Below are positions 47,897-63,251 of a stretch of DNA of 64,000 nucleotides, one piece after another. Each line of letters begins with the position of its first letter. Position 1 is the stretch's first letter. The stretch lies in sequence record NZ_CP010801.1; one strand, written 5' to 3'. Under the pieces are notes generated by a model that searched no databases, was not told the origin of the DNA, and saw nothing but the letters and a program-made list of their open reading frames with translations. Source of the stretch: a plasmid. The position numbers and the translations under genes are program-made.

Positions 47897-47952
47897 TTTC
47901 GACCAGAGCCCGCTTCCTACATGGAGCGGGCTTTTTCTTCGGCAGCGCGAGA

Positions 47953-47987: not shown

Positions 47988-48003
47988 TTTACAGGAGATC
48001 AAC

Positions 48004-48222
48004 ATGCAAAACGATGTGCCCGCTTTCATCGGCTTGTCTGCGGTGCGCCTGGCCGCGCAAGTCGGCAAGACGCTGGCGCGCATTCCCGTCGAGCGCCAAG
48101 AATTTCTCTTCGGGGCTGGTTCGACACCGGAACCCCAACGCGAGGGCTACGCGTTGACTGCAAAGTGGCCCCGCAAAGCCCGCGCCCCTGGCGCCGCGCA
48201 GCAGGAGCAGGACCATGCGTGA
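48004..48222 (+). CDS. Small hypothetical protein
   Basis: 72-aa ORF. Stop overlaps the next ATG. Confidence 0.25.
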   Translation: MQNDVPAFIGLSAVRLAAQVGKTLARIPVERQEFLFGAGSTPEPQREGYALTAKWPRKARAPGAAQQEQDHA

Positions 48223-48667: not shown

Positions 48668-48727
48668 CTGCTGATGTGCAACCAATCCCGTCTGCTACAG
48701 GCGGGATTTTTTTTTGCCCCCCACTGA

Positions 48728-48762
48728 CAACCACCTGCGAACCTTGGCAATCCCGCCGAGAT
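48728..48762 (+). promoter_or_regulatory. Upstream module copy 7
   Basis: CAACCACCTGCGAACCTTGGCAATCCCGCCGAG. Confidence 0.45.
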
Positions 48763-48777
48763 CCACAGGAGACCTGT

Positions 48778-49584
48778 ATGCCAGGACCAGACTTCTTTCA
48801 AACCATGATGGGCCGCAACTTTTTCGAGGGCACTATGCCGTCGATCGCGCGCAACCTTGCGACGATTGCCGAGGCGCTGAAGCGTAGCAATGAGCTACTC
48901 GAGCAGAAGCCCTCGACAGCGGAAGGTCAGCCGCGCGATGCGATACCGCTGAACAAGCTGCAGCGCATCGCAGTCAGCGGCTATGAGGACGGAACGTATT
49001 CCGCACTGCGGTCGGTCCGTGAGTTCGAAGGAATCGGCGACACGCTGATTCTGGCCATCGTTCGTGAACTAGAGGACGCAGATAGCACGACATGCGCGCT
49101 GAATCGTCTGCAGGGCATGGCCGCTCAGATCTCGCAAGTCGTCGGCGCCATCGAATCGTCCGCTGGCCAGCCGCCGGCAACGGCAGAATGGGCGCCGGAG
49201 AAGGGCGTCATGACCGACGCGCAATTCATTGCCCGTCGTGGTTGTCATTGCCCCTCTTGCGGGAGCAATGACCTTTCCTGCCAGGGGCATATCGAAGGCG
49301 AGGAAGCTACCGCTTCGCAATCGGTGAAGTGCGAAAACTGCAGTGCAACCTGGGTCGACACATATTCGTTGAGCGGATATGCCGAACTGGATGGTGGCAT
49401 TGACCTGAAGTCAGTCCAATCCATTGTCGATGAGGTGCGGAGCCGCGCGCAGACGTACAGATTCGCGATCGGAAGCGAAGTCCAGGCGCGCGAAGCCGTC
49501 AATAAAACTTGCGATCAGGTCGATCCTTCATTGAGTGAGGCCGAAAGAACGATCGCTGTGAAGCTGCTCCGAGCCGCCGATTGA
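48778..49584 (+). CDS. Hypothetical protein with internal Zn-ribbon
   Basis: CHCPSCG...CENC. Confidence 0.35.
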   Translation: MPGPDFFQTMMGRNFFEGTMPSIARNLATIAEALKRSNELLEQKPSTAEGQPRDAIPLNKLQRIAVSGYEDGTYSALRSVREFEGIGDTLILAIVRELEDADSTTCALNRLQGMAAQISQVVGAIESSAGQPPATAEWAPEKGVMTDAQFIARRGCHCPSCGSNDLSCQGHIEGEEATASQSVKCENCSATWVDTYSLSGYAELDGGIDLKSVQSIVDEVRSRAQTYRFAIGSEVQAREAVNKTCDQVDPSLSEAERTIAVKLLRAAD

Positions 49585-49640
49585 TGTTCCACCAAACCGC
49601 CTCGCGAAAGCGCAGGCGGTTTTTTCTTCTTCGCGCTGAG

Positions 49641-49676
49641 CAACCACTCCTGAAAAACCGGCAATCCCGCCGGACT
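49641..49676 (+). promoter_or_regulatory. Upstream module copy 8
   Basis: CAACCACTCCTGAAAAACCGGCAATCCCGCCGGAC. Confidence 0.5.
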
Positions 49677-49691
49677 TTGCAGGAGGAAAAA

Positions 49692-50627
49692 ATGAAGCAG
49701 GTTGCATTTACCACGTCCTCGGGCTCGCCCGACAACGATGCTTGGCACGCTTGGCGTGCGCAGCATTTGGGCGCGTCCGATGCACCGGTGATCGCAGCAG
49801 GACGCGGCTTGTGCAGCAAGCCGTCGTGGGCGCGGTCTCTACACGCCCTCTGGCTGGAGAAAACCGGGCAACTGCCGCCGCAGAAATCGAACTTCGCGAT
49901 GAATCGGGGTCGGCAGTACGAGGAAACTGCCCGCCTGGCGTATGAGGCGAAGACGGGCGAAATGGTGTCGCCTTGCTTCGGCGAGTGCGAACCCTTTCCG
50001 CAGCTTTCGGCATCGTTCGATGGCATGAGCCTGGATGGCAATACGATCGTCGAGATCAAGGTGCCATCCGCGAAGGTTCACGAGATGGCCAAGAATGGCC
50101 AGGTGGTCGATTACTACGTGCCACAAATCGCGCACCAGGCGCTGGTCGCTTGGGGTATGCCTGAGTCCTGGGGCAACGACAAGCGAGCGTTCTTCGTGAG
50201 CTACGACCCGGATAAGGACGAACTGGTCATCGTGCCGGTCGACATGGGCGAACTGGCGATGATGGCGAAGCGGTTGCTGCCGTGTCTGCTGGACTTCTGG
50301 CAGGCGGTGTTCGAGAAACGTCCTCCGCTTGGCGATGGCATGGAGCCGCTTGCGCAAGCCTACCTGGAGCTGGTCGACAGAATTGGCGACCTCGAAGGCG
50401 AGAAAGACGCGCTGCGCGCGCAACTCATTGAGTTGGCAGAGAAGCAGGGTGGCCGCGCCGAAGGCTATGGCGTGTCGGTGATCAAATCCATGGTCAAGGG
50501 CACGATCGACTATGCCAAGGCTGCCAAAGATTTGAACATCGACTTCGAACCGTACCGCAAGCAAGGTAAGGAGACCTGGTACGTGAAGGCCAGCGGCCAG
50601 AGAGAGGGGCAGCAAGCGAGCGCGTGA
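49692..50627 (+). CDS. YqaJ-like viral recombinase-domain exonuclease (PD-(D/E)xK)
   Basis: LGASDAPVIAAG...ASFDGMSLDGNTIVEIKVP. Confidence 0.55.
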   Translation: MKQVAFTTSSGSPDNDAWHAWRAQHLGASDAPVIAAGRGLCSKPSWARSLHALWLEKTGQLPPQKSNFAMNRGRQYEETARLAYEAKTGEMVSPCFGECEPFPQLSASFDGMSLDGNTIVEIKVPSAKVHEMAKNGQVVDYYVPQIAHQALVAWGMPESWGNDKRAFFVSYDPDKDELVIVPVDMGELAMMAKRLLPCLLDFWQAVFEKRPPLGDGMEPLAQAYLELVDRIGDLEGEKDALRAQLIELAEKQGGRAEGYGVSVIKSMVKGTIDYAKAAKDLNIDFEPYRKQGKETWYVKASGQREGQQASA

Positions 50628-50702
50628 TCGTTCGTCAGCTGAATCACACCACCATCACACAACCCGCCAGCACACGCTGGCGGGTTTTTTCATGTGCCGC
50701 GC

Positions 50703-50740
50703 GCAACAACTACAGGGGAAACCGGCGAATCCCCGCCGAA
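50703..50740 (+). promoter_or_regulatory. Upstream module copy 9
   Basis: CAACAACTACAGGGGAAACCGGCGAATCCCCGCCGAAG. Confidence 0.45.
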
Positions 50741-50759
50741 GATGAGAGGAGAACCCCAG

Positions 50760-51137
50760 ATGAAGAACGTAATCGAGGTCGGCGCTGGCCCTTCCTGCGC
50801 GGACGTGGCCCAGGTCGGCGAGGTGAATTTTGCCGTGCGCAATCGTAGCGAGTGCAGAGCATTCATTCGCCAGATCGAGCGCGCCTATGGCCAGCCTCCA
50901 GTTGGCGTGAGTCTGGTGCTGACCACCAATCAGCACGAATTTGGCACCTACCGCGAAGTTGGCATTGAGATCGAGCCGCTTAGCATTGAGCAAGTCCGGA
51001 CGGCTTCGGACTGGGCCAATGCGGTCGAGTCTGATTCCCAGTGCAAGCTGGAGGACTGGGACGCCGAGGCTCTGTTGGAGTTGGGCTTGGAGGCGAATGC
51101 AACGCAGAGCGCTTCGCAGGCTGTCATCCATGGCTGA
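50760..51137 (+). CDS. Hypothetical protein
   Basis: 125-aa ORF. Confidence 0.3.
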   Translation: MKNVIEVGAGPSCADVAQVGEVNFAVRNRSECRAFIRQIERAYGQPPVGVSLVLTTNQHEFGTYREVGIEIEPLSIEQVRTASDWANAVESDSQCKLEDWDAEALLELGLEANATQSASQAVIHG

Positions 51138-51621
51138 TTTCATCAATGTAGCCATCGCCGCCATCCCCGTGGTGAACAGGAAGGCCCTGGACGACGAGGA
51201 CAGGCATGTGCCCGCCGTGTATTCGGTCATGGTGGCCACCGGCCTGTCCGAAGGCAGCATGGCAGCTGCGGCGCTCGATGTCTTCCATTCGGAGATCGGC
51301 GTGGATGTGCTCGATGATTTCGAGTTCTTCGTGATTGACCCGCGCACCGGCCGCGTGCTGGAGCAGGACGAAGACCACGAGGACTACTCGAAAACGCACC
51401 TCGGGCGCGACGTGGAACGTATCGGTGACAAGCTGCCCGGGATCTACTCGGTGACCGTTGAAGCCGTCGGCGACGACGTGGCAGTCACGGTGCTCGGCAT
51501 TATCAAGGTCGCGGCAGACAATAAGCCTGAAGCGAACCGGAAAGCCCTCGACATCCTATGGGATGACCGGCTCGATGCGGCAAGCTGTTCGGCCCGCTGC
51601 CACAGCGTGCGCTGTCGTTAA
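51130..51621 (+). CDS. Hypothetical acidic protein
   Basis: ATGGCTGA overlap. Confidence 0.3.
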   Translation: MADFINVAIAAIPVVNRKALDDEDRHVPAVYSVMVATGLSEGSMAAAALDVFHSEIGVDVLDDFEFFVIDPRTGRVLEQDEDHEDYSKTHLGRDVERIGDKLPGIYSVTVEAVGDDVAVTVLGIIKVAADNKPEANRKALDILWDDRLDAASCSARCHSVRCR

Positions 51622-51706
51622 GCGACTGTAAATCAAGCAACCAGGCCCTGTTCTCTTCGGAGACGGGGCTTTTCTCATTGGCCCGATTTTCTATGTCCCG
51701 GCAGGG

Positions 51707-51741
51707 CAACCACTCTGGAATACAGCCAATCCCGGCTGGAT
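51707..51741 (+). promoter_or_regulatory. Upstream module copy 10 (degenerate palindrome)
   Basis: CAACCACTCTGGAATACAGCCAATCCCGGCTGGA. Confidence 0.4.
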
Positions 51742-51757
51742 ACTCAAGGAGAATTCC

Positions 51758-52468
51758 ATGAGCAATTTGAACAAGTTGTTTGACTTGACCGATGCGCTGA
51801 ACGAGTCGGGCAGCAATGAAGGCTGCGAAGCCGATCTGATGGTGGTGAGTTCCGCGCGACTCTGGGATCTAACGCAATACGTGCGGCTACTCAAAGCAGT
51901 CGAGCAGTCCCAGAATGTGGAAGACCATGCCAACGCCAACAAAATCTGTGAACGCCTCCTCAATTCGGAAGAGCACTCTGTTGAGTCGGCAATTCCAGGG
52001 GTGGCGGAGGATGCGGTGGAGGTGATCAACCGCCTTTCTATCGCTATGAAAGCCACTCAGGTCGCGCTATCGCAAGCCATGCAGCATTCGGAGGAAAGGG
52101 CGCGGTTTGTCAAACAGATTGCTGATCTCAGCATCTGGGATTTCGAAAAGGATGACGGCACCCCGTACAAAGAATGCGAACGGCCTTCGGACGGTTTCCT
52201 CGATTCCCATTGCTGCTTGATGGCGAGCATCGAGGAGGCACGACGGATTGACCTGCGTGCCGCCCTTGAGGCGTTGAATTCGCCGCAGGGCGAGGACAGC
52301 GAGGACTGGACCGGCCGGGTGGAGATGAGCGTCACTGCTGATTCTCCCGAGGAAGCAGCAAAGTTCACGCTCGATGACATTCGCGACCGCGAACTGGAAG
52401 GTATCAACGTCGATGTCCAGAACGTTGGCAGCGGTCGTATCGTGACCGTGTTTGTCAAGAACGCGTAG
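51758..52468 (+). CDS. Hypothetical acidic protein (lower-GC patch)
   Basis: 236-aa ORF. Local GC drop from 51640 to 52640. Confidence 0.35.
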   Translation: MSNLNKLFDLTDALNESGSNEGCEADLMVVSSARLWDLTQYVRLLKAVEQSQNVEDHANANKICERLLNSEEHSVESAIPGVAEDAVEVINRLSIAMKATQVALSQAMQHSEERARFVKQIADLSIWDFEKDDGTPYKECERPSDGFLDSHCCLMASIEEARRIDLRAALEALNSPQGEDSEDWTGRVEMSVTADSPEEAAKFTLDDIRDRELEGINVDVQNVGSGRIVTVFVKNA

Positions 52469-52583
52469 GCCAGTTCACGGATGCGGTTGCCGCTCAAGCG
52501 CAAGCCTCAAAGGATGTCCAATTCGGTGCGCCGAATGAAGCACATAACCACAGAACAGCCGGGCCTCATGCCCGGCTTTTTTA

Positions 52584-53027
52584 TTGCCAATGAAAGAATC
52601 GCGATATATGATTTCTATAGCAAGAAACCGGACTCAACAAATGGGAACCAACGCAATCGTAGGGAAGCAGAATCAGGCGACCGCCGGCGCGGTGCTGACG
52701 AAGGCCGCCCTGCGCTCAGCGGACCTGCTGGGGTTGAATAACGCCATGCTTGCACGTGTGGTCGGTGTGAGCGAGTCGCAAGTCTCGCGCATGGCCGCCG
52801 GCCAGCGGCAACTGGAGATCGGGACCAAACCAGCAGAGCTCGCGACATTGCTCGTGCGTGTCTACCGTTCTCTGGATGCCATGGTCGGTAACAGCGACCA
52901 GCACCGCAAGCTCTGGATGTCTTCCTTTAACCGCGCCTTCAACGAAGTCCCGAAGGATGCGATCCAGAAGGTGGACGGCCTCGTGCGGGTGGTGAGCTAT
53001 CTGGACGGCGCGCGCGCCATCGCCTGA
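52584..53027 (+). CDS. Xre/MbcA/ParS-type antitoxin
   Basis: HTH (LLGLNNAMLARVVGVSESQVSRMAAGQRQ) plus C-terminal toxin-binding domain. Start uncertain (52584, 52608 or 52641). Confidence 0.55.
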   Translation: MPMKESRYMISIARNRTQQMGTNAIVGKQNQATAGAVLTKAALRSADLLGLNNAMLARVVGVSESQVSRMAAGQRQLEIGTKPAELATLLVRVYRSLDAMVGNSDQHRKLWMSSFNRAFNEVPKDAIQKVDGLVRVVSYLDGARAIA

Positions 53028-53728
53028 TGCAGTGGCACGCAGAATGGCTGGCATCGATTGGCACCCAACATCGCGATCTCTGGCGCGCGGTGGAGGCGCA
53101 GCATCGCGTTGCGACGATGCGTCTGGCGGACTCTCTGGATGAGCAGCATCTACTCGAGCAATTGCTTGAGGATAGCAAGCCAACGTTGCCTGTCGAAGCC
53201 GAAGGGGCGCCCTATCTGCTTTCGACCCCCTTTCGCTATGTCTCTCAGTGGTCCTCGCGCTTTCGCCGTCCAGGTGAGGGCGGTGCTTGGTACGGAGCCG
53301 ACGAGCCAGAGACCGTCGCGGCAGAAATCGCCCACTGGCGCTGGAAATTCTTTATGGACAGCGAGGGACTCAAGGACACGCAGCTTGTCGTGGAATTGAC
53401 GTTCTTCCAGGCACACTTTTGCGGGCTAGAGTTGGATCTGACCGAACCGCCCTGGAACGCGCACCGCGCCAACTGGCGTGATCCCGAGAATTACGCTCAC
53501 TGTCACGCGCTTGCAACGCATGCCAGAAGCCTTATTCCGCCTACGGGTGCAATCCGGTACGAATCTGCGCGTAGGGAGTACGGAGCCTGCCAGGTGGTGT
53601 TCGACGTCCAGACACTGAGTATGCCAAACGCCTGTTTGCAACAGACCTGGGTGTGCAAGACGACAGCCGAGCGTGTTCTCATTTCACGGGACGACACGGT
53701 GCTGCAGTTTGATATGCCCGAGGCGTAG
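53027..53728 (+). CDS. RES-domain toxin (MbcT/ParT family)
   Basis: RFRRPGEGGAWYGADEPETVAAE RES motif. TGATG overlap with the antitoxin. Confidence 0.7.
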   Translation: MQWHAEWLASIGTQHRDLWRAVEAQHRVATMRLADSLDEQHLLEQLLEDSKPTLPVEAEGAPYLLSTPFRYVSQWSSRFRRPGEGGAWYGADEPETVAAEIAHWRWKFFMDSEGLKDTQLVVELTFFQAHFCGLELDLTEPPWNAHRANWRDPENYAHCHALATHARSLIPPTGAIRYESARREYGACQVVFDVQTLSMPNACLQQTWVCKTTAERVLISRDDTVLQFDMPEA

Positions 53729-53784
53729 CAGGCTCCCAAAGATAGTCCCCCGAAGGCCGCAGGTTTTTTTCTGTCCTTACCAGG

Positions 53785-53817
53785 CAACTATCTCCGAATC
53801 CCGGCATTTCGCCGGAC
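53785..53817 (+). promoter_or_regulatory. Upstream module copy 11
   Basis: CAACTATCTCCGAATCCCGGCATTTCGCCGGAC. Confidence 0.5.
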
Positions 53818-53832
53818 CTTGAGGAGAGCCAC

Positions 53833-54702
53833 ATGAAAGTGACAGTCACCTGGGGCCAAGACACCCCCGCCTACGCAACCGAAGTCATTGAAGTGCCGGA
53901 TGACGCCAACGATGGCCAGATCATCGAAGCGGTCATGGCAAGGGCGGATGCTGTCGGCAATCTCGTTTTCGATCCGTCGTACGATTGGACCGGCCTGCGC
54001 GCTGTTGAAATCTCGGCGCCCGACGGGCGAGTCATTGATAACGACGTCGCCATCGAGCCGTCTGGCGAAGACCTGGGCCTGGTGGTGCGAAACGTCATGA
54101 GCGGTGCCGTGAGTCTGGAGGCCATGCTTCACGAGGCCGAACGCCAGAACATCGTACCCGCGCAAGAAGTCATCGGGGCGCTGAAGCTGGCCGGGGACGC
54201 CATGGCAGCACGCAAGGCGCTTCCGGAAATCCCGTCGTTCACGCCGTACCAGCTGGTGATCGATGCCTTCGCGTGCAACCAAGACGGGGATAGCCCGTCT
54301 TACGCTGCAATCGAGGTCAAGCCGGAGTTTCTGGCCAAGATCGCTCGCGTGTCGGCAGCTGCTTCGGCGGCCGGCATTCGGGTGGCGCATGTTGACGCAG
54401 ACAATGGCATCTGGAGCGATCCGGATAACAGTCTGCGTATGCGCGACAGCGAGCTTGTGGTGTATCCGCAGCACGGGGCGGGGAACACCTCGTTCTGGTT
54501 CCGTGGGCATCCCAAAAACGCGGACTACGACTGCGAGACGCGAGCGATCGATCTCAACGATCTGATCACCAGTGTCAGCACCGATGGCGAACTGCCTTCC
54601 GGGTTCGAGCGCGACCGTGGCGTGTTGTTCTACGACGGCGGCGCGGGGACGGCGATCGATCTGAGGGATCTGTACTTCGAAGGGAGCGATGCCGAGCACT
54701 GA
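53833..54702 (+). CDS. Hypothetical protein
   Basis: 289-aa ORF. Confidence 0.35.
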   Translation: MKVTVTWGQDTPAYATEVIEVPDDANDGQIIEAVMARADAVGNLVFDPSYDWTGLRAVEISAPDGRVIDNDVAIEPSGEDLGLVVRNVMSGAVSLEAMLHEAERQNIVPAQEVIGALKLAGDAMAARKALPEIPSFTPYQLVIDAFACNQDGDSPSYAAIEVKPEFLAKIARVSAAASAAGIRVAHVDADNGIWSDPDNSLRMRDSELVVYPQHGAGNTSFWFRGHPKNADYDCETRAIDLNDLITSVSTDGELPSGFERDRGVLFYDGGAGTAIDLRDLYFEGSDAEH

Positions 54703-54854
54703 GCAGGCGCATTACGCCTACCCGGACGAGCAATTTCAGTCCGTTCACCTGACCGAAGAACTGGAGGCCTGATCACGGCCCCAAGGACTCGGGCATTGAC
54801 CCGAAAACCGGCCTGCGCGCAAGCGTGGGTCGGTTTTTTCTTTTTGGCATCGCA

Positions 54855-54887
54855 CAACCATTCCCGAATCCCGGCAATTCCGCCGGA
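54855..54887 (+). promoter_or_regulatory. Upstream module copy 12
   Basis: CAACCATTCCCGAATCCCGGCAATTCCGCCGGAC. Confidence 0.5.
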
Positions 54888-54903
54888 CTATAAGGAGCAA
54901 GAC

Positions 54904-55425
54904 ATGGCAAATTGGTATGGCAGTGCACGGACGAACTATGTCCGCCTCAACGATGGCGTGACAGTTGAGGCATTGCAGGAGCACCTTGAGCTCATCGGCG
55001 CCGATCTGGAAATGTGGGAAAAGGAAATCGAGGGAGGCTTGCACGTCGGCTTCGGCGCAGGCGACTCCGACAACGGCGGTTTCCCCTGCTGGTTGTCTCC
55101 GAACATCCCGGACCGTGAGGCTGACCCCGAAGGCTTCGCCCGCTTGGCGAAAGCCTTGCAGGTGCCCGAGGACGACCTGGAGGGCACCGATGAAGCTGAG
55201 TTTTCGTGGGAGCAGCACATCATGCCGTTCGTTGCGGAGGGCGAGGTGCTGGTTGCGCAGGAGATCGGTGCAGAGAAGCTGCGCTATCTGACTGGTCACG
55301 CCACTGCTTTCATACGCCGCGGTGAAACCATCCAGAAGGTCGGCGTTTCTATCCGCGACATCTATGAGGAGGCTGCAGAGACTTTCGGCGTGGATGCGAC
55401 GAAGATCATCGAGGCCACATACTGA
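54904..55425 (+). CDS. Hypothetical acidic protein
   Basis: 173-aa ORF. Strong terminator follows. Confidence 0.35.
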   Translation: MANWYGSARTNYVRLNDGVTVEALQEHLELIGADLEMWEKEIEGGLHVGFGAGDSDNGGFPCWLSPNIPDREADPEGFARLAKALQVPEDDLEGTDEAEFSWEQHIMPFVAEGEVLVAQEIGAEKLRYLTGHATAFIRRGETIQKVGVSIRDIYEEAAETFGVDATKIIEATY

Positions 55426-55435
55426 TTCACTCAAG

Positions 55436-55480
55436 ACCCCCATGCAGCCGTGATCGGCTGTGTGGGGGTTTTTGTTTTTC
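55436..55480. terminator. Rho-independent terminator
   Basis: CCCCCATGCAGCCG-TGAT-CGGCTGTGTGGGGG plus T-run. Confidence 0.55.
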
Positions 55481-55665
55481 AGCTTTCAGTGGGTCGGTGG
55501 CGCGAGCGTAGGATCATTCGGTTGTCGACGCACCCTAAGCATCGACTACTTGACCGCCGTTACCTTCAACTTTCGTCCATGTAGCAACCTGGCGTTGGTA
55601 CTTTCTGCAGCTAGTGTCACCAGCAGTGCCAAGAAGAAGATTCTGCGCATCTAGGCCTTCCTGCA

Positions 55666-56982
55666 TCAATTGACGGAGAATGGAGCATGTGAAACTGGCC
55701 GCGCCCAGTTCACCGCGCGAAGTAAAGGCACGCCCCAAATCCGGGCCTGCATGCCGATAGCGCGAGTTTGAGCGACCGCGTTGCCGTCGTGAGCGAACCA
55801 CTGGTTGGCAGCTGAAATGAGCAGCGCCGGGGTCGTGCCATGCGCGGTCATCTGCAGACGCTGGGCAATCAGCGGCCACAATAGCAGATCCTCATAGCAG
55901 ATCGAGATTAACGCCGGGCCGTAGCGAGTCTGCAGGCCGCCCCCGGGTGCCCGCATCGGGTAGTGCTCATCTGCCCACGGTCTCCACATTCCAATTGGCA
56001 TGGGCATTTGCGCTGTGTAGTGCTGGTCCGTTACCAGGTCGAGCAGAGTGTCACGCCCGTCATGCTGGGTGAGTGGATCGGTCTCATAGACTCCCAGCAG
56101 AACCGTCGCCTTCTTCTTCCTTGCCAACTCTGCGATGTCGCTCCAGTAGAAGGCCTGGCCGTCATTCCATTGCGCGTTCGCGCCCTCAGGTAGCACGATC
56201 AGGCGGGCGCCTTCGTCGATCGCGCGGCGCACCTGCGCCTTGAGGTCGTCCTGGCGGGCAAAGCGCTGCTGCAGAGCCTCCGGATAGTCGCCGAGATACG
56301 TCGTCATCGCCCAAGCAAGATCGGGAGCGGCAGGCAGACGATATGTGGCAGCCTGGAGTGCGCCCCATAGTAGCGCTGCGATGAGCGCAGCCGTCACTGC
56401 CTTATTCCCGCTGGTGCGCGCCGTCGAGCTCCAGGACGCGATGGCCAGCAGCGCGGCGATCAGCGCTACGCCAGCCAGCCCCCAACCCGGGAACAGCGCG
56501 CCGGCTGCCAGAAGGGGAGAGGCCATACCAAGTATGCCCAGTGGGGGTACTGCGCCCAGACTCAGTCCGCAAAGGATGCCGATCCAAGGCCGGCCTCGCG
56601 GTGCGAGGAGGAAGGGGGCGGCCATTATCAGCGCCCAGCCTAGCCAGGCCATCACGCCTGGGGCCACCGAGCCTGCGAAGAAGCCAGTCCACAGAGATGG
56701 AATCGCCGAGCCGGCACCGAGATACCAGCCAAAGAACAGCAGTGCCACATCGCGCCGGCGGTGTTTCGGCCGAAATGCCAGCGTCATGGACAGCAGGGCG
56801 AAGCCGAACAGCATGCGCTGGGCATCGTTGGGCGCCAGCCAGCTTGTGCTGATGATGGATTCGATGGAAAACCAGCCGGCGAGCGCGCCGAGGGCGGCCC
56901 AGCTGCCCGCTGTAGACAGGTTGGACCAGGGAAGTGCGGCGCGCAGGCGCGCGCCTACCGGGGACGATGCTGCCGTGCTCAT
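55666..56982 (-). CDS. Polytopic membrane protein with C-terminal carbon-nitrogen hydrolase domain (apolipoprotein N-acyltransferase Lnt-like)
   Basis: About 7 TM segments. LIVLPEGA (catalytic Glu context) and ISICYEDL (catalytic Cys context) of the nitrilase/Lnt superfamily. Confidence 0.5.
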   Translation of the reverse strand: MSTAASSPVGARLRAALPWSNLSTAGSWAALGALAGWFSIESIISTSWLAPNDAQRMLFGFALLSMTLAFRPKHRRRDVALLFFGWYLGAGSAIPSLWTGFFAGSVAPGVMAWLGWALIMAAPFLLAPRGRPWIGILCGLSLGAVPPLGILGMASPLLAAGALFPGWGLAGVALIAALLAIASWSSTARTSGNKAVTAALIAALLWGALQAATYRLPAAPDLAWAMTTYLGDYPEALQQRFARQDDLKAQVRRAIDEGARLIVLPEGANAQWNDGQAFYWSDIAELARKKKATVLLGVYETDPLTQHDGRDTLLDLVTDQHYTAQMPMPIGMWRPWADEHYPMRAPGGGLQTRYGPALISICYEDLLLWPLIAQRLQMTAHGTTPALLISAANQWFAHDGNAVAQTRAIGMQARIWGVPLLRAVNWARPVSHAPFSVN

Positions 56983-58979
56983 GCAGCCGCCATTGCCGCG
57001 CGCGCGGCCTGTACATGCTCGAGCAATACTACTGCCTTCTTCCCCGTGTTCTGTCCACCCATGGCATCCATCACAGCCATGTTCTTGGCGTCCTTGAGCG
57101 CCTCCAGGATCGAGGCCTGGGACAGCCCAGTCAGCACTCCGGCCGCCTGATCCACCCAAGACACCGGATCCCCTTCACCGAGGAAGCCGGCGTGCTCGGA
57201 CGCCCACCAGGCCACCACATCTCGAACGACGTCGCCGTCGGGCAGCCCAATCTCCACACGCGTCCCGAAGCGCCCACCGCGCACGGCTGCAGCGTCGATC
57301 ATGTCCGGATTGTTTGTCGCCGCGATCCACACCACGTCCTGCAGCATGCCGCCGGCGCCGTCGATGAGTTGCAGCAGAGCGTTGGTAGCCTCCTTGGTCG
57401 CGCTCATCGAGCGATCGGCGAGGATGTCATCCGCTTCGTCGATGAAGACAATGGCCGGGCGCATGTTGCTCGCCTTGTCGCGCAGCTTCTGCACGGCGTC
57501 CTCCGACATCAGTTGCTTGCCCGAATACACGAGCAACGGCCACTGGCACGCCTTGGCTAGGGCAGACGCCGCTGCAGTCTTGCCCGTGCCCGGCGGGCCG
57601 GAGAACAGAACGCCCTTGGGCAGAGTGCCGCCTAGTTCCTCGAAACGGTCGAGATCGCGCATCTGCGCAGCGAGGTTTTCCAACCGGCGCTTGACTTCAG
57701 GCGCATAGAACAGCTGGCCGATCTCCTTCGTGCCCTCCGCGGCGCCGCCCTTGTAGCCTTGCAGTGTCCGCATGGCCTTGAGCAGATCCGAGAAATTGAC
57801 CTCGCTTGCATTGCCCGCGCGAGCGATCTCGATGGCGCGTTGGGTGGCTTTCTGGATCGTCGGCACATTCAAGCCGCCCCAGCGCCGCACGAGCCGCTCG
57901 AGCACCCCATTGTCGATGCCGATGCGTTCCTTCTTAAGCTCGATGTCGATCAGGTGGGCGCGGGCTTGCGCGTCGGGCAGCGGCACCTCCACGGGGAAGT
58001 CAAAGCGCGCCGCGCGCACCGCCGCCTCGTCCAGTCGGTCCTTGAAGTTGGTCGCCGCCACCAGCAGCACGCCGGGATGGTGGGTGCGCGTGTCGTCCAC
58101 GAGCGAGAGGAACGTCGTCACCATCCGGTTGTATTCCTCGTAGCTGCCCGATCCGGAGCGCTGGCTGACCAGGCTGTCCGCTTCGTCGAAGAACAGCACC
58201 ACGGGCGCCTGCGCCCAGGCGTCCTCAAACACCTTGCGCAGATTCTCGGTGGTGGCGCCAACCCACTTGGACGCCAGATCGCCGTAGCTCACCTTAATGA
58301 GCCCCAGGGCGGCCTGCCCAGCCAGGGCGCTGGCCATGAGGCTCTTGCCGCCGCCAGGAGGGCCGAACAGCAGGACGCCATTGCCCGATTTCTCTTGCCA
58401 GGCCGACAGCGCACGGCGCATATCGCTCTTGAGGGTCTCCTGACCAACGATGCTGTCGAAGTTCACACTGGGGCGTGCCGCACGGAACTGGAAGTTCTGC
58501 GTCGGCAGCTGCGTCTGATCAGCGGCACCGGCAGGGGCGGTCGCGTATTGTTCCTCCCAGACCAGCAGCAGATCTTGATTGGGCATAACGACTGGCTTGG
58601 TTGTCAGCGCCATGGCTACCGCAAACAGCGTGTAGATCGCGCCAACAATGAGCATGCCCGCGCAGCCCGGGACGATCCAGCCGGCGAGGGAAGGGAAGGT
58701 ACGGGCAGCTGCATGCCACGCGATACCTGTTGCAACCATAAGCACTAGACCGGGGCTGATGGGAAGGTTGTTCAGCTTCATGTCGAGCAGCTGCCGCAAC
58801 AGGTTGAAGAGCGCCGCAACGCTCAGCAGCACCAGCAGTGCGATCAGGCCGAACACCACGCCATGCGTCGCAGCCGGGAACAGGCTGAGCGCGGCCATGA
58901 TGCTCACCGGCACGATGAGCAATGCCGTAAAGCTGCGGGTGCTGTAGACCTCGGCGCTGGCACTCTTGAGTTGGTTCAT
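56979..58979 (-). CDS. Membrane-anchored tandem AAA+ ATPase
   Basis: 4 N-terminal TM. D1 GPPGGGKS/LFFDEAD. D2 GPPGTGKT/VFIDEADD. Arg-finger-like regions. Stop overlaps the downstream gene start. Confidence 0.7.
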   Translation of the reverse strand: MNQLKSASAEVYSTRSFTALLIVPVSIMAALSLFPAATHGVVFGLIALLVLLSVAALFNLLRQLLDMKLNNLPISPGLVLMVATGIAWHAAARTFPSLAGWIVPGCAGMLIVGAIYTLFAVAMALTTKPVVMPNQDLLLVWEEQYATAPAGAADQTQLPTQNFQFRAARPSVNFDSIVGQETLKSDMRRALSAWQEKSGNGVLLFGPPGGGKSLMASALAGQAALGLIKVSYGDLASKWVGATTENLRKVFEDAWAQAPVVLFFDEADSLVSQRSGSGSYEEYNRMVTTFLSLVDDTRTHHPGVLLVAATNFKDRLDEAAVRAARFDFPVEVPLPDAQARAHLIDIELKKERIGIDNGVLERLVRRWGGLNVPTIQKATQRAIEIARAGNASEVNFSDLLKAMRTLQGYKGGAAEGTKEIGQLFYAPEVKRRLENLAAQMRDLDRFEELGGTLPKGVLFSGPPGTGKTAAASALAKACQWPLLVYSGKQLMSEDAVQKLRDKASNMRPAIVFIDEADDILADRSMSATKEATNALLQLIDGAGGMLQDVVWIAATNNPDMIDAAAVRGGRFGTRVEIGLPDGDVVRDVVAWWASEHAGFLGEGDPVSWVDQAAGVLTGLSQASILEALKDAKNMAVMDAMGGQNTGKKAVVLLEHVQAARAAMAAA

Positions 58980-59021
58980 GGTCAGTGGCTCGTGGACTTC
59001 GAATAACGATCAATTTGTGTT

Positions 59022-60881
59022 GTGTTGCGAGTATATGTAGCAACACTGCGAGAAGCAAGGTATGATAACTATCAAAATCAAGCAGCCAGGGATGCGCGGC
59101 TCGACATCATTAGAATGGCTGCAGATCCAACCCCAGAGCGGTATCCCGGCCGCGCATCGGACGGACCTATGCGAATCGATCTTCCGCACATTGCCTTCTT
59201 GCGCAGCGTCATCGATGGCATGGACGTCAACGCTGCGTTCGACCGTTACCTGTCGCTGATTTATGACGGCCGGCGCGTCGATAGTAGCTTCGTGCGCCAG
59301 ACTCTAATGGAGGTGCATGAGACTTGCGCAGGCGCGGCCTTAGAGGCGGGCAAGCCCGAGCTTGCCAAGCTGTTCGACTTCGACGTGCTCGCACTCACGG
59401 GCAATAGCGAAACTGCGCCTGAAAAGGAGCGGATCACCGTCGGCGGCGAAGCCATCGTTCAAGCGCTCGAGCAGATCGAGACGCAGTTTGCGCGCCGTCC
59501 TGTGCCAAGCGACCCGATCGATGACTGGTTTGCACCGCGTATCGCGTCGTGTCTGCAGGCCAGTGGGATCGTGTCTTTGCACGCGTTGTGCGTACGGATG
59601 ATGAGTCCATACTGGCACACGAGCATCAGCGGCATCGGCCGACTCAAGGCCGAGCGCCTTGAGGCCTTCATGCGCGAGTGGTCGTTGACGACTGATGAGC
59701 GCGCCGCCTGGCCGGCTGTGCCGATCGACACGGGATCGCAGGCCGCCGACAACGCCGAGTTGTTGGTGCCGGCCACGTTTCTCACTTTGGTGAACGTGCT
59801 GGACGATCCGGCCAGTGCAAGTAACGCGCTAGGAGCGCAGACTCATGCCGACGCGGTACGTGCATTTCTGTCGCGCTACAGCGGCCACACCTTGCGCGCC
59901 TACCGCCGCGAAGTCGAGAGGCTGCTGATCTGGGCTACGTTCGAGCGCCGCAAGCGCATTGTCGAGTTCGTGCGACAAGACGTCATTGCTTACCGGGACT
60001 TCCTGGAGGATCCCCAGCCGCGCGAGCACTGGTGCGCGCCGAGGAACATTCCGAAGAACAGCCCAGCGTGGCGTCCACTGGAGGGACCGCTCTCTGAGGC
60101 CAGCCTGCGCCAGTCCACCATCATCATCGGCAAGATGTTCACGTTCTTCGTGCAGACGGGCATCATGCGCCTCAATCCGGCACTTCACCTGCCGCGGCCG
60201 GGCCGGCAGAATTTGCGTCAACAGTTCGGGCGCCGCCTGCTTTCGCGAGCCGATCTGGACCTGCTGCGCGAGCACGCAGGCCCAGGCGCGCGCGGTGAGC
60301 GTACGGTTTTGCTGCTCGATTTGTTGTACGCCACGGGTCTACGCATCTCAGAGGCCGCTGGTGCGATGTTCAAACATGTCATGCCACTCGGCGAGGGTTA
60401 CCTGCTTGGTGTCGTCGGCAAAGGCAAGAAGTATCGGGAGGTGCCTGTTCCCGCCGAAATCATCGATAGGGCACGGCGCATGGCGCATGCGCGCGGAGCC
60501 CAAGGTGCACGTGCCAATGGCGCGTATCTGCTGGGGTGGGTGGGCCCGAAGGGCCTGACCATTTCTCTCGATCCATATGAGGGCGTGAATGCGTCGGTGC
60601 TCGCGCGAGACGTGAAGCAAGCGGCAGAACGCGCTGCCGAGAGCGTGAAGGCTCAAGATCCGGCGCGTGCGGAGCGCCTACTTGGCGCCTCGGCGCATTG
60701 GCTGCGGCATTCGCACGCCTCGCATGCGCTGGAGGCGGGTGTCGCTTTGGCGGCGGTCCAAGCCAACCTGGGCCACACGTCGCTCGTCACCACTAGCGTC
60801 TACGCTACGACCGAGCAAAGTCTGCGCATGCAGCAGATGCAGGAGTTCTGGCAGCAGTCGTCCGGCGATTCCGATCGATAG
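59022..60881 (+). CDS. Large tyrosine recombinase/integrase (IntB13/P4-like)
   Basis: C-terminal HWLRHSHASH...LGHTSLVTTSVYATT (R-H-R-Y). 619 aa. Confidence 0.75.
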   Translation: MLRVYVATLREARYDNYQNQAARDARLDIIRMAADPTPERYPGRASDGPMRIDLPHIAFLRSVIDGMDVNAAFDRYLSLIYDGRRVDSSFVRQTLMEVHETCAGAALEAGKPELAKLFDFDVLALTGNSETAPEKERITVGGEAIVQALEQIETQFARRPVPSDPIDDWFAPRIASCLQASGIVSLHALCVRMMSPYWHTSISGIGRLKAERLEAFMREWSLTTDERAAWPAVPIDTGSQAADNAELLVPATFLTLVNVLDDPASASNALGAQTHADAVRAFLSRYSGHTLRAYRREVERLLIWATFERRKRIVEFVRQDVIAYRDFLEDPQPREHWCAPRNIPKNSPAWRPLEGPLSEASLRQSTIIIGKMFTFFVQTGIMRLNPALHLPRPGRQNLRQQFGRRLLSRADLDLLREHAGPGARGERTVLLLDLLYATGLRISEAAGAMFKHVMPLGEGYLLGVVGKGKKYREVPVPAEIIDRARRMAHARGAQGARANGAYLLGWVGPKGLTISLDPYEGVNASVLARDVKQAAERAAESVKAQDPARAERLLGASAHWLRHSHASHALEAGVALAAVQANLGHTSLVTTSVYATTEQSLRMQQMQEFWQQSSGDSDR

Positions 60882-60905
60882 CTACCCAGGTGGCTGGGAT
60901 ACGGC

Positions 60906-61808
60906 CTAATCAGTGTCTGCTACGTTGGTCACGATCGATGGCTCGAGCACCCACTCTGCCGCCGGCGCAGCTGCCTTGTCGCTGGACAGGAAAAAGTAGA
61001 GCGTGCAGCCCAGGCCTTCGCAATGTTCCAAGGCCTGATGCATGACGTCATGCCGATGTTCGAGCATCAGTTCCGGATTCGCGCGGTCCTTCAGGGACAG
61101 TTCGTTCTTCAGCCGGATCGTGAACGTCTTCACCGTGCCAGTGCGCGCTGTCGCGACGATCCTGTATTCGCAGGCATCGCGCTCGACGAGCTCGGGCGGC
61201 GTGCGCAACGTATGCAGTGCGCCATCCTCGGCGACCCTGATCTCGAACCAATACGCGAAGGCGGACTGGATCTCCTCTTCACTGAGCTCGATGCCCTGGG
61301 CCTTGGCCGATCGAAGAGCGTATTCGGGATCCGGGATCAGCGAGTCGATCGTGCCGTGTTCGTAAGGGCGCACCGCGACGATCCGGGTGCCGCGGCCGAC
61401 GGACACCATGACGATGATTGCGCGGCCAGCGTGCCAGAGCGCGTAGGCGCGCAGCGGCTCGGCGATGATCGGCGCGAGCTCAATCCCTCCGTGTTTCCGG
61501 GCCATGTCGCTGAGATCGGCTATCGAGCAGTCGTACACGGACGTGGGATCTTCGCCCAGGCCAATTAGCCAGCTGGTGAGGTGCGCCACTACGGGGCACT
61601 GCACGATACCCGGGATTTCAAACGCATAGTCCTTGCAGGCGTTCAGGAATGCAGCCGGGCTCAGCCCAGTGATCTGCTCGATGTCGCGCCGGACAGCTTT
61701 GGGGACGACGAAAATGGGGGAGGCGGTCCGCTGGGGAGATTCACTCATCTCGACATGCTGCGGACGATCGATTTTATGGGCGAGCAGCCCAGCGATGGCT
61801 TGAAACAT
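60906..61808 (-). CDS. Hypothetical protein
   Basis: 300-aa ORF convergent with the integrase. Start may be at the internal MSESPQ. Confidence 0.35.
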   Translation of the reverse strand: MFQAIAGLLAHKIDRPQHVEMSESPQRTASPIFVVPKAVRRDIEQITGLSPAAFLNACKDYAFEIPGIVQCPVVAHLTSWLIGLGEDPTSVYDCSIADLSDMARKHGGIELAPIIAEPLRAYALWHAGRAIIVMVSVGRGTRIVAVRPYEHGTIDSLIPDPEYALRSAKAQGIELSEEEIQSAFAYWFEIRVAEDGALHTLRTPPELVERDACEYRIVATARTGTVKTFTIRLKNELSLKDRANPELMLEHRHDVMHQALEHCEGLGCTLYFFLSSDKAAAPAAEWVLEPSIVTNVADTD

Positions 61809-61920
61809 ATTGTTCTCCAGATGGCACCCAGGTGAACGCGGGGGTGCTGTGTCCGCGTGAAATTCATCTTACTTGGCAATACCAACTCGCGCAACACCCT
61901 TTTTTGTCTGTGCCAGCTAA

Positions 61921-61952
61921 CAACTACTTCTGAACCCCCGGGATGTCCGGGA
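61921..61952 (+). promoter_or_regulatory. Upstream module copy 13
   Basis: CAACTACTTCTGAACCCCCGGGATGTCCGGGA. Confidence 0.5.
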
Positions 61953-61968
61953 TTTTCAGGAGACGATC

Positions 61969-62184
61969 ATGGTTTGGCTGATTGCTTTGGTTGGTGCTTC
62001 CGCTCTGCTGTTCTGGTGGCGCCTGCTTGTCGTGATGGTGAAGTCCAATGCTGGCCAGGCGTTTCTACGTCGCGCGTGCTTTTTCGTCGGCGCTGCTTGG
62101 CGTCAGAAGAGTCTGCGACGCGCGGCCAGCCTGACGCGCCAAGCCGAGTGGAAACACACCTGGCTGGGAGGTCATCGTGGTTGA
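61969..62184 (+). CDS. Small membrane protein
   Basis: TM WLIALVGASALLFWW. Confidence 0.25.
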   Translation: MVWLIALVGASALLFWWRLLVVMVKSNAGQAFLRRACFFVGAAWRQKSLRRAASLTRQAEWKHTWLGGHRG

Positions 62185-63196
62185 TCTTCCCGAGCTTGTT
62201 CAGGAACAGGGTTTTGCCCTGCGCAAGCAAGGGAGGACATGGGGCGGCGCCAGCTGCCCCTCGTGTGGTGAGGGGCAGGAAACCTCGAACCGGCTGTGCG
62301 TCTATGTAGGAGACGGTGGGAAATGGCGCTTCAAGTGCCATGCCTGCGGGATCCGAGGGGACGCGGCCGACTTCCTTGCCGTTTCACGCGGCATTTCCTT
62401 GCGTGCCGCGCTTAAGGAGGTCCAGTCTCGTACTGGAGTCGTTCAATCTCAACCCTCCAAGGCTCCCCGCCGAGAGGCGGGTCCAGCGCCTATCGACGAT
62501 GGCGCCAAGGCGCAAGCCATCAACGTCATCGTGGACAAGCTGCTGGATTCGCAGGAAGGCAAGCGCGACGCGCAAGCCTACTTTCGACGCCGGGGCATCT
62601 CGAGCAAGGTGTTCCAGGAGGCGTGGGGGCGAGGCATCATCCGCAGTCTGCCATCGCAGTCGCCGATTGCCACTCGTTGGCTTCGCGAACAGATCGGTAG
62701 CATCCACCTGATGGCGTCAGGCCTACTGCGTCAAGGCGCAGCGTGCCCGGCGGCAGCTTTCCGCCCGATCGTCGGCATCCTGCCGAAGAAGTCTGGCGTG
62801 GAGTTCCGCCTGAACCACGAGGCTGATCGCACGGAGGTCAAGGCGTTGCGCTATGGGCGTTTGGTCTACCCATGGTGGTGGCGGCCGAATGGCGAGATGC
62901 ACCGCCTGATCGTCGTCGAGGGGTACATCGACATGCTCAGTCTGGTTGAGCAGGGGCAAGACAAGGACACCGCCATCATGGCGCTGCCGGGCGCTAATTC
63001 GTGGCGTCTGCCCTGGTTCGAGACCCTGAAGCAGCGCAATCCGAATCTGGAGGTGCTGGTGGCCCTTGATGCGGATGACGCTGGTGATCGCACCGCCGCG
63101 ACGATGATTGAAGCCGTCGCCGGCGTCGGTCTGAAAACCCAGCGCTTGCGCCCCGAGAAAGGCAAAGACTGGAACGAAGCCCTTTTGGCTGCATGA
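62177..63196 (+). CDS. DNA primase (CHC2 Zn-finger plus Toprim)
   Basis: CPSCGEG...CHAC zinc finger. Toprim EGYIDMLS...DADDAGD. GTG start after GGAGG. Confidence 0.6.
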   Translation: MVDLPELVQEQGFALRKQGRTWGGASCPSCGEGQETSNRLCVYVGDGGKWRFKCHACGIRGDAADFLAVSRGISLRAALKEVQSRTGVVQSQPSKAPRREAGPAPIDDGAKAQAINVIVDKLLDSQEGKRDAQAYFRRRGISSKVFQEAWGRGIIRSLPSQSPIATRWLREQIGSIHLMASGLLRQGAACPAAAFRPIVGILPKKSGVEFRLNHEADRTEVKALRYGRLVYPWWWRPNGEMHRLIVVEGYIDMLSLVEQGQDKDTAIMALPGANSWRLPWFETLKQRNPNLEVLVALDADDAGDRTAATMIEAVAGVGLKTQRLRPEKGKDWNEALLAA

Positions 63197-63251
63197 ACCG
63201 AACCCGTCGGCGCGTTTGCGCTGGCGGGTTTTTTTCTTTTTTCCGGCCGAA

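Follow-up and report, generated by a model that had tools for sequence, protein, structure and literature searches.

The subject of this analysis is a two-gene operon in a 64,000-nucleotide stretch of plasmid DNA (sequence record NZ_CP010801.1; the whole stretch is hereafter called the window). The first gene (gene 1) encodes a membrane-anchored ATPase with two AAA+ modules, and the second (gene 2) encodes a polytopic protein that we describe as a TraB-like hydrolase (Table 1). The two genes overlap in an ATGA, in which the stop codon of the ATPase gene runs into the start codon of the hydrolase gene; they are translationally coupled and therefore co-expressed. Both open reading frames (ORFs) were called, identically to those of the window, by an independent gene caller on a public metagenome scaffold (L001), which carries an identical ATPase and is 99.73% identical to window positions 46979-63248. 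Past 63248 the identity between this scaffold and the window is about 91% and then the alignment stops, so that the elements are mosaic beyond the primase gene. A longer, TTG-start ORF for gene 2 (497 aa, to 57159) was considered and rejected: both the N-termini of homologues and the gene caller favour the ATG at 56982.

The pair is the sole minus-strand unit between plus-strand ORFs (54796-55425 and earlier) and a large, divergently oriented tyrosine integrase, an arrangement on which ORFs, Pfam matches and gene calls agree. At its 3' side, a GC-rich hairpin that is likely to be a terminator separates the convergent ends of the pair and of the last plus-strand ORF. At its 5' side, the intergenic region shared with the integrase gene is presumed to contain the promoter; a scan of positions 55300-59300, this region included, returned no sigma-70-like promoter site. 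Both the stop/start overlap and the isolated minus-strand position before the integrase had been read correctly in a preliminary description that was made from the letters of the DNA alone.

Table 1. Features of the operon and of its surroundings. Positions are those of the window, except in the last row, where each is preceded by its locus.
Feature	Position	Strand	Details and basis
Gene 1, ATPase	56979-58979	minus	666 aa, ATG start; ORF and independent gene call
Four-helix N-terminal membrane anchor (ATPase aa 9-126)	58602-58955	minus	model helices, family hydrophobicity, loop Lys/Arg (K/R) counts
AAA+ module D1, aa ~170-410	57750-58472	minus	Walker A K212, Walker B D265/E266, pore-loop W239, sensor-1 N311, Arg fingers R322/R325
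AAA+ module D2, aa ~425-665	56985-57707	minus	Walker A K467, Walker B D514/E515, sensor-1 N556, Arg fingers R567/R570
Gene 2, TraB-like hydrolase	55666-56982	minus	438 aa; ORF and independent gene call
Seven-helix membrane domain of gene 2, aa 19-213	56344-56928	minus	model
Nitrilase-like domain of gene 2, aa 223-426, predicted to face the periplasm	55705-56316	minus	hhalign to E. coli Lnt, column counts
Gene 2 codon E266	56185-56187	minus	checked in sequence
Gene 2 codons C362-Y363-E364	55891-55899	minus	checked in sequence
Gene 2 codon A324	56011-56013	minus	checked in sequence
ATGA stop/start overlap	56979-56982	minus	ATPase TGA, hydrolase ATG; direct sequence reading
Divergent intergenic region, ATPase/integrase, 189 bp	58980-59168	none	gene calls; presumed promoter region
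Tyrosine integrase, DUF3701-type, divergent from the pair	59169-60881	plus	Pfam PF00589 and PF12482
GC-rich hairpin, 18-bp stem, 3' of gene 2	55433-55472	none	likely terminator
Type IVb pilus operon, R64/PAPI-1-like	1-12236	plus	Pfam: TcpQ, PilN secretin, PilO, two T2SSE ATPases, T2SSF, shufflon PilV
ATPase genes of relatives embedded in type IV secretion operons	L157:6596-8530, L158:6839-8773, L161:5704-7644, L162:5554-7500, L163:5494-7518, L165:5635-7701

The product of gene 1 contains two PF00004 AAA modules (Pfam, E 1.7e-63). An AlphaFold model built on 42 homologues, with a predicted local distance difference test (pLDDT) value of 88.4, begins with four long helices (residues 9-31, 39-65, 75-94 and 99-126), which are followed by a disordered linker (131-157) and then by D1 and D2, both complete; Pfam and the model thus agree with the preliminary description of a protein with four transmembrane (TM) helices and two intact AAA+ modules. 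The best Foldseek matches are NVL, Rix7, p97/VCP and Cdc48, each aligned through both rings over 530-570 columns at 23-28% identity. The protein is therefore a type-II, classical-clade AAA+ ATPase that is Cdc48/NVL-like and not FtsH-like, in keeping with its earlier designation as a type-II AAA+ unfoldase, and it carries no FtsH protease. Its scores against the curated NCBIfam equivalogs, including CDC48, PAN and the anti-phage IteA, all lie below cut-off. Among 42 members of the ATPase family, the Walker A and B motifs, the sensor-1 asparagine and both arginine fingers are essentially invariant in D1 and in D2. The aromatic pore loop is distributed differently: in D1 it reads S-K-W239-V/I-G/N, with tryptophan in 42/42, and in D2 it is absent from all 42. 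Every family member has hydrophobic segments ahead of the first Walker A motif, from one to four in number and mostly two to four. In the window protein the K/R counts of successive loops (1/0/1/0/3) fit the positive-inside rule, from which we predict that its N-terminus is inside and that both AAA rings are cytoplasmic.

The gene 2 model, built on 36 homologues (pLDDT 90.8; predicted template modelling score 0.90), has seven TM helices and then a C-terminal alpha-beta-beta-alpha domain. Its top 24 PDB matches in Foldseek are all structures of Lnt, aligned over the full length (E about 1e-11, query TM-score (TMq) 0.60-0.67, 14-18% identity); soluble nitrilases match the C-terminal half only. 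Judged by the model, then, gene 2 has the Lnt fold, with a membrane domain and a nitrilase-like domain, and the Lnt-like character that had been proposed for it is borne out by this search. Sequence comparison gives a different picture. A Pfam search at E<=0.01 assigned no family, and hence neither CN_hydrolase nor LNT_N; a profile search of PDB sequences retrieved no Lnt and only a pantetheinase, at E 0.98; and hhalign of the gene 2 family against E. coli Lnt reached 94% probability in the C-terminal half only. We therefore do not classify gene 2 as an Lnt by sequence, because only the fold comparison and the hhalign of that half lead to Lnt.

In Lnt, eight TM helices are present and the nitrilase domain lies between helices 7 and 8 (PMC5500888). 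Gene 2 lacks the eighth helix, as its modelled chain ends about 12 residues past the last strand. The K/R counts of its successive loops (2/0/3/0/2/0/1) alternate cleanly, which leads us to predict a seven-TM topology with the N-terminus inside and the catalytic domain in the periplasm, as in Lnt. Between helices 5 and 6, a lid-like loop with a short helix (aa 145-168) has the conserved pattern VPPLG...SPLL..G..FPG, in which P147 and G152 are invariant in the alignment.

In its catalytic residues gene 2 agrees with Lnt only in part. The hhalign alignment pairs E267, C387, Y388 and E389 of Lnt with E266, C362, Y363 and E364 of gene 2, and across 179 relatives E266 (in LPEGA), C362 (in ICYED) and E364 are invariant or nearly so. 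In the same alignment, the essential K335 of Lnt falls on Ala324 and E343 on Met332; a lysine at the K335 column is found in 0/179 relatives. The next position, 325, is arginine in 130 of the 179, Ti plasmid TraB included, and it is plausible that Arg325 is a functional substitute for the Lnt lysine in these TraB relatives. The window protein has Gln325, and nearly all of its close clade (P0002-P0028) are likewise without the arginine, P0018 being the exception. The earlier outline of gene 2, a protein of 438 residues with about seven TM helices and with Glu and Cys in the LPEGA and ICYED contexts, agrees with both the model and the 179 relatives. Its assignment to the nitrilase superfamily holds as far as the fold is concerned; Pfam detects no CN-hydrolase, however, and the nitrilase lysine is missing.

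We turn to the family to which gene 2 belongs. Its only NCBIfam matches, which extend over the full length at E 2e-43, are to four models of the PRK13825 group, named "conjugal transfer protein TraB" or "carbon-nitrogen hydrolase family protein". These scores lie under the cut-offs of the models, which range from 316 to 863 bits: the best is 149 bits versus 500, and that for the subfamily model is 102.5 versus 316. A profile of the gene 2 family (A1) aligned with the TraB of the Ti plasmid pTiN40_94 with 100% hhalign probability (E 5.8e-45; residues 16-411 against 4-393). With tblastn, gene 2 matched 499 of 72,556 plasmid records, of which 360 are predicted to be conjugative; the matches, mostly from Agrobacterium, Rhizobium and Sinorhizobium, coincide exactly with genes whose annotation is "conjugal transfer protein TraB". 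In pTiN40_94 (L098), the TraB gene stands in the classical operon of traA (relaxase), traF (peptidase), traB and traH. An exhaustive hidden Markov model search of 1.84 billion representatives with the gene 2 family retrieved, at E<=1e-30, 780 clusters (50% identity) and, at E<=1e-3, just 2,174, so that the TraB family is discrete and does not merge into Lnt. From these sequence relationships, gene 2 is best described not as an equivalog but as a branch of the TraB family that has diverged and is atypical in its catalytic residues.

The genomic setting of the hydrolase family is also one of conjugation. We scored 52 hydrolase loci of >=12 kb for genes of T4SSs (type IV secretion systems), for Dtr (DNA transfer and replication) genes, and for a mobile-element backbone represented by SNF2, topoisomerase III, YqaJ, Sak and the DUF3701 integrase; such genes lie <=10 kb from the hydrolase in 33/52, which is a lower bound, as the tblastn screen was conservative and its query set small. 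In Ralstonia, a gene of the hydrolase family directly follows trbG/trbI (TrbG/TrbI). In one metagenomic locus, a distant TraB-like gene has directly upstream of it a gene for a 1,534-aa RHS-repeat protein (L046:4516-9120), an unexpected companion for a conjugation gene. In the searched literature, TraB figures solely as one of the conjugal transfer proteins that the traAFBH operon encodes; Class II Rhizobiales systems are without traF, traB and traH (PMC3907764, PMC4700958). Our searches of the literature found no mechanism for the Ti-type TraB. Work by Farrand and colleagues in 1996 is said to have found Ti traB non-essential and needed for maximal transfer frequency.

The host element can be placed from its pilus operon, with which the window begins. 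Two contigs (L159 and L160) that are 100% identical to window positions 1-11923 reach 9 kb further upstream, where VirB4 comes first, then two small genes and VirB6/TrbL; an opposite-strand gene of 163 aa separates these from VirB8, VirB9 and VirB10, which are followed by a 270-aa gene and by TcpQ. The pilus operon of the window is thus the direct continuation of a VirB4-VirB6-VirB8-VirB9-VirB10 T4SS operon. Because the VirB genes adjoin the pilus operon in these identical contigs, we conclude that the element is a conjugative, plasmid-type replicon in which a VirB-type T4SS is fused to a type IVb pilus operon. The window also encodes RepA_C, ParB, a RecD2-like helicase, Sak, YqaJ, a primase, a RES-Xre pair, an IS1595 transposase and two tyrosine recombinases; no tRNA genes were found in it.

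Relatives of the ATPase turn up inside just such T4SS operons. With tblastn, 16 plasmid records, all from Betaproteobacteria, contain a member of the ATPase family at E<=1e-40. Gene order was inspected in seven; in six, the ATPase gene lies between virB6 and virB8 and is followed by virB9, virB10 and TcpQ genes, and the seventh carries a fragmented copy. The six are plasmids of Azonexus, Polaromonas JS666 (plasmid 2, typed MOBH/MPF_T and conjugative), Ralstonia insidiosa (pRI-1), Paraburkholderia aromaticivorans (pBN2), Hydrogenophaga (pBPS33-1) and Rhodoferax T118. Annotated merely as 'ATP-binding protein' or 'AAA family ATPase', these T4SS-embedded proteins have 2-4 TM segments and two AAA modules, and are 31-41% identical to the window ATPase through both rings. 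Gene 1 is a member of this family of tandem AAA+ ATPases, which is associated with T4SSs and has no name. In the window's own element, the virB6-virB8 slot holds the opposite-strand 163-aa gene and no ATPase; the ATPase gene is instead about 57 kb from the T4SS, beside the integrase. Other relatives have BREX genes as neighbours (L095), adjoin ParM and RecD2-like genes (L096) or lie in a RepC/ArdC plasmid-like context (L102). Reviews of T4SSs list just three ATPases: VirB4, VirB11 and the coupling protein VirD4 (PMC4027160). We found no description in the searched literature of a classical tandem (Cdc48-like) AAA+ protein as a T4SS component.

Some details of these operons vary. The gene right after the T4SS-embedded ATPase encodes an EexN-family entry-exclusion lipoprotein in Polaromonas (L158:8808-9086) and a lytic transglycosylase in Hydrogenophaga (L163:7521-8135). 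At many ATPase loci, an ORF of 50-135 aa overlaps the ATPase start. As for a conserved small partner upstream, all-against-all BLAST of these ORFs found similarity only between Ralstonia and Paraburkholderia, and nothing like them occurs in the window. Two small ORFs upstream of the ATPase (L155:6427-6729 and, on the minus strand, L156:10964-11164) resemble AlpA/excisionase-type helix-turn-helix regulators by eye only; BLAST shows no similarity between the two.

We next consider how far the two genes of the window travel together. In the close clade of the hydrolase, 13 distinct loci were examined, the window among them; the distant TraB-like loci (n=45) are <36% identical. An ATPase gene lies <=10 kb from the hydrolase gene at 6/13 close-clade loci, and at 3/13 it is directly upstream on the same strand: in the window (4-bp overlap), in L100/L101 (2-bp gap), where the pair is preceded by a divergent DUF3701 integrase and its downstream flank differs from that of the window, and in L155 (10-bp gap), beside a type I-F CRISPR-Cas system. 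At the other three the arrangement is looser. Five genes intervene in L094, the closest relative; in L156 the ATPase gene is 3 kb away on the opposite strand, with both genes inside a T4SS cluster; and in L038 the distance is 7 kb. This linkage is spread over several sub-clades of the hydrolase tree, and because the ATPase family is rare, the co-occurrence is far from chance. Identities of ATPase and hydrolase to those of the window fall roughly in parallel, from 59/56% through 44/49% (L100) to 42/about 43% (L155), a pattern that suggests co-inheritance. That the two genes have stayed adjacent while identity fell to 42-49% and the flanks changed suggests that their co-expression has been selected for. 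An earlier impression that the pair is non-syntenic, gained from a first set of about 50 loci in which adjacency was seen only in the window's own sequence, was overturned by L100/L101, L155 and L156. One metagenome-assembled genome (MAG; GCA_031962425.1) has two TraB-like paralogues, of which that in L155 is paired with an upstream ATPase and that in L002 is unpaired, beside topoisomerase III and an SNF2 helicase. Bearing in mind that many relatives of each gene are unpaired, neither gene depends on the other. The two genes can thus be called a pair, as the preliminary description had it, in the sense that their adjacency recurs in three lineages; the pairing is not obligate, most relatives of each being found alone.

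We hypothesize that the pair is an accessory envelope module of a conjugative, plasmid-like element that bears a T4SS and a type IVb pilus, and is not a defence system; we put the probability of this interpretation at about one half. By analogy with Lnt, Cys362, Glu266 and Glu364 of gene 2 would form an acyl-thioester on the periplasmic face of the inner membrane, and the acyl group would then be transferred or hydrolysed on a lipid-anchored or membrane-embedded transfer component, such as a lipoprotein of the T4SS or pilus, or a pilin. Gene 1 would assemble as a hexamer on the cytoplasmic face, with four TM helices per subunit and 24 in all; its D1 would be the translocating ring, by virtue of the pore-loop tryptophan, and its D2 a second active ATPase ring. 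The D1 tryptophans would pull on segments that are exposed to the cytoplasm, so that inner-membrane subunits of the T4SS or pilus are extracted or remodelled. In the lineage of the window, the ATPase gene would have left the T4SS operon; it is now translationally coupled to the TraB-like gene. Any cooperation between the two proteins would run through their membrane domains, or would be sequential, on a shared membrane substrate.

Several observations count against this interpretation. The pairing is optional: 7/13 close hydrolase loci have no ATPase, the fetched flanks of the 45 distant TraB-like loci contain none (0/45), and no hydrolase gene was found near the T4SS-embedded ATPases. The inner membrane is predicted to separate the two catalytic centres, with the AAA rings on its cytoplasmic and the nitrilase-like domain on its periplasmic side, which makes it unlikely that the hydrolase acts on a polypeptide threaded by the ATPase; the lipid- or peptidoglycan-modifying chemistry on a threaded substrate that was suggested earlier is, as stated, unlikely for this reason. 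As gene 2 has neither the catalytic lysine of nitrilases and Lnt nor the neighbouring arginine of most TraB relatives, its acyl-enzyme chemistry may be altered or lost. The backbone gene TcpQ is found in identical form in 135 index blocks, and the exact ATPase in one contig, a hint that the pair may belong to the variable cargo and not to the core machinery of transfer. Finally, there are defence-type neighbours: a BrxR (WYL) regulator beside one pair (L100:8677-9558), the type I-F CRISPR-Cas system beside another (L155:11912-20031), BrxL/PglZ of BREX beside a lone ATPase (L095:5238-9651), and RES-Xre in the window.

These neighbours feed the idea that the pair is a novel defence or exclusion module, in which the ATPase and the Lnt-like enzyme jointly keep out phage DNA, plasmid DNA or toxins delivered by a T4SS. 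They might do so by remodelling lipoproteins or receptors of the envelope, or by extracting foreign proteins that have been injected or inserted into the membrane. To them can be added the integrase-proximal, cargo-like slot of the pair, which adjoins the RES-Xre toxin-antitoxin genes, and the EexN gene that follows the T4SS-embedded ATPase in Polaromonas. In pKM101-type systems, entry-exclusion genes are located in the virB6-virB8 interval. Furthermore, in L156, inside the T4SS cluster that also has the TraB-like gene, a 168-aa Ntox17 toxin-domain gene (L156:8133-8639, minus strand) overlaps the 3' end of the ATPase gene, which hints at a link to T4SS-delivered toxins or to immunity. The ATPase also has PADLOC matches, the best being to IetA models (1.3e-60). 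However, this similarity is that of generic AAA proteins: it covers one AAA module only (residues 191-406), and FtsH, PAN and CDC48 models score equally well. IetA of the IetAS (Ietis) system shares a classical-clade AAA module with our ATPase; it differs in its length, about 370 aa in the models, in its one AAA module and in its protease partner, IetS, where the ATPase has a TraB-like neighbour. We therefore rejected membership of Ietis, the score against NF042959 (IteA) being 184 bits versus a cut-off of 510, with no IetS-type protease partner. The hydrolase has no PADLOC match, and the searched literature contains nothing relevant on a named system that pairs an AAA+ protein with a CN-hydrolase, in line with what had been supposed from the start. 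Among 2.9 million viral and proviral contigs, scanned with both family alignments, no hydrolase relative was detected, and the ATPase alignment drew only generic AAA matches of <=37% identity, mostly on giant-virus contigs; neither family is thus represented there. The dominant and repeated context of both families is conjugation machinery. We consequently regard a defence role as unlikely. Of the initial proposal of an uncharacterised defence or envelope-remodelling module, the word uncharacterised remains fair, and the defence framing is not sustained in view of the TraB homology, the VirB-type T4SS operon contexts and the conjugative element.

It is also conceivable, though in our estimation doubtful, that these are two functionally independent accessory genes, both from one family of mobile elements, that are neighbours by chance, their ATGA overlap being a compaction that followed rearrangement. 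This would account for relatives in which each gene mostly occurs without the other, for the intervening genes, the opposite strands and the 7-kb distance of L094, L156 and L038, for the MAG with both a paired and an unpaired paralogue, and for catalytic domains on opposite sides of the membrane. It is harder to reconcile with co-directional adjacency (gaps of -4, 2 and 10 bp) in three lineages at 42-49% identity and with differing flanks, or with the nearness of so rare an ATPase, known from 16 plasmid records, to almost half of the close hydrolase loci; moreover, both proteins are inner-membrane proteins with T4SS associations.

A bolder version of the accessory-module hypothesis, and a rather improbable one, is that the ATPase serves one lineage of T4SSs as a fourth motor, so far unrecognised, and that in the lineage of the window it joins the lysine-less TraB/Lnt-like enzyme in a complex across the membrane: the enzyme would acylate or deacylate a lipid-anchored or membrane-embedded subunit of the T4SS or pilus on the periplasmic side, and the ATPase, working from the cytoplasm, would pull this subunit from the inner membrane or through it. 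Such an energy-coupled remodelling of lipoproteins or pilins in conjugation or entry exclusion would have no described precedent, and we rate it as a long shot too.

The last alternative, a housekeeping Lnt paralogue for lipoprotein maturation next to an FtsH-like quality-control protease with a degenerate protease domain, has to its credit the Lnt fold of gene 2 and an FtsH_fam NCBIfam match of the ATPase (1e-62), and is nonetheless scarcely credible: gene 2 matched no Lnt, CN_hydrolase or LNT_N model and is missing K335, E343 and helix 8 of Lnt, the ATPase reaches 213 bits of the 600 that FtsH demands and has two AAA modules and no M41 region, and the element that carries the two genes is plasmid-like, with RepA_C, ParB and a T4SS. 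Gene 2 is, in short, no housekeeping Lnt and gene 1 no FtsH, and their synteny recurs (L100/L101, L155), the three points on which the preliminary description had said that it would stand or fall.

Several other features of the window deserve mention. About 2 kb from the operon there is a complete toxin-antitoxin pair, an Xre-family antitoxin (52584-53027, plus strand) and a RES-domain toxin (53027-53728, plus strand), whose gene begins within the last bases of that for the antitoxin. Two plus-strand ORFs, 53833-54702 (289 aa) and 54796-55425 (209 aa), occupy the interval from the RES toxin to the operon; both were also called on the public contig, and a Pfam search gave no match for either. 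Downstream of the pilus operon, positions 16570-19130 (plus strand) encode an FAD/NAD oxidoreductase, an R2K-clade ATP-grasp protein and a secreted-type Endonuclease_NS. A DUF5131 protein and a PAPS-reductase-domain protein are encoded at 26155-28726 (plus strand), followed by an IS1595-family transposase (29162-30148, minus strand). The second tyrosine recombinase lies at 34861-36081.

What was known before is the TraB family, which is mechanistically blank; what is new is gene 2 as an atypical member of it, and its operon with the ATPase as a lineage-specific variant. The Lnt architecture of gene 2, with its Cys/Glu/Glu set and without the lysine, gives TraB a testable hypothesis, namely that it transfers or hydrolyses acyl groups at the inner membrane's outer face. 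The conserved tandem AAA+ protein, Cdc48-like and anchored by four helices, whose gene lies between virB6 and virB8 on several environmental plasmids, would be a motor additional to the three ATPases of the T4SS. The operon is a compact genetic handle on both questions, since it consists of just two genes with clear catalytic residues and its native conjugative element has a phenotype that can be measured. Should the pair modulate transfer, host range or exclusion, it bears on the spread of large environmental plasmids; if either gene should instead serve in defence, it would be a new type of defence gene.

It is instructive to set both proteins beside the known systems that they resemble. Gene 2 retains the equivalents of Glu267, Cys387, Tyr388 and Glu389 of Lnt from E. 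coli and P. aeruginosa (5n6h, 5n6m) and has the same predicted topology. It differs in that the triad of Lnt is Glu267-Lys335-Cys387, of which gene 2 has the Glu and the Cys and has Ala in place of Lys335; in its seven TM helices, where Lnt has eight; in its Met at the position of E343; in an identity as low as 14-18%; and in being plasmid-borne, whereas Lnt is the product of a housekeeping gene. The likeness to TraB of Ti plasmids is closer. The two are homologous from end to end and of the same length class, each with a polytopic N-terminal half and a nitrilase-like C-terminal half; they share the invariant PE...CYE motifs, and both are found on conjugative elements. On the other hand, gene 2 is only 25-30% identical to Ti TraB, has Gln at position 325 where Ti TraB has Arg, and stands outside a Dtr operon, with no adjoining TraA or TraF, following an AAA+ ATPase beside an integrase. 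Its coupling to this ATPase also sets it apart, for none is nearby in the 45 distant TraB-like loci or in the inspected Ti locus of pTiN40_94.

The ATPase resembles Cdc48/p97/VAT and NVL/Rix7 in its two stacked classical AAA modules with Walker, sensor-1 and double Arg-finger motifs. Where Cdc48 has its CDC48_N domain, however, the ATPase has the four-helix membrane anchor instead, with no match to PF02359 or PF02933, and its score against TIGR01243 is 198 bits versus a cut-off of 803. The prominent aromatic pore loop of p97 belongs to D2; the ATPase has one in D1 only. With FtsH, Msp1/ATAD1 and Bcs1 it shares an N-terminal TM anchor that is predicted to put a classical AAA ring at the cytoplasmic face of the membrane, and a pore-loop aromatic residue that suits the pulling of membrane proteins. 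These proteins differ in having one AAA module and one or two TM helices, against two modules and four TM helices in the ATPase; FtsH has, in addition, an M41 protease, whereas the ATPase has no Peptidase_M41 match and scores 213 bits against TIGR01241, for which the cut-off is 600. Lastly, relatives of the ATPase are encoded in the same operon as canonical T4SS ATPases (VirB4, VirB11 and VirD4), with which the family has inner-membrane association in common; the window-type ATPase nevertheless belongs to an unrelated ATPase clade.

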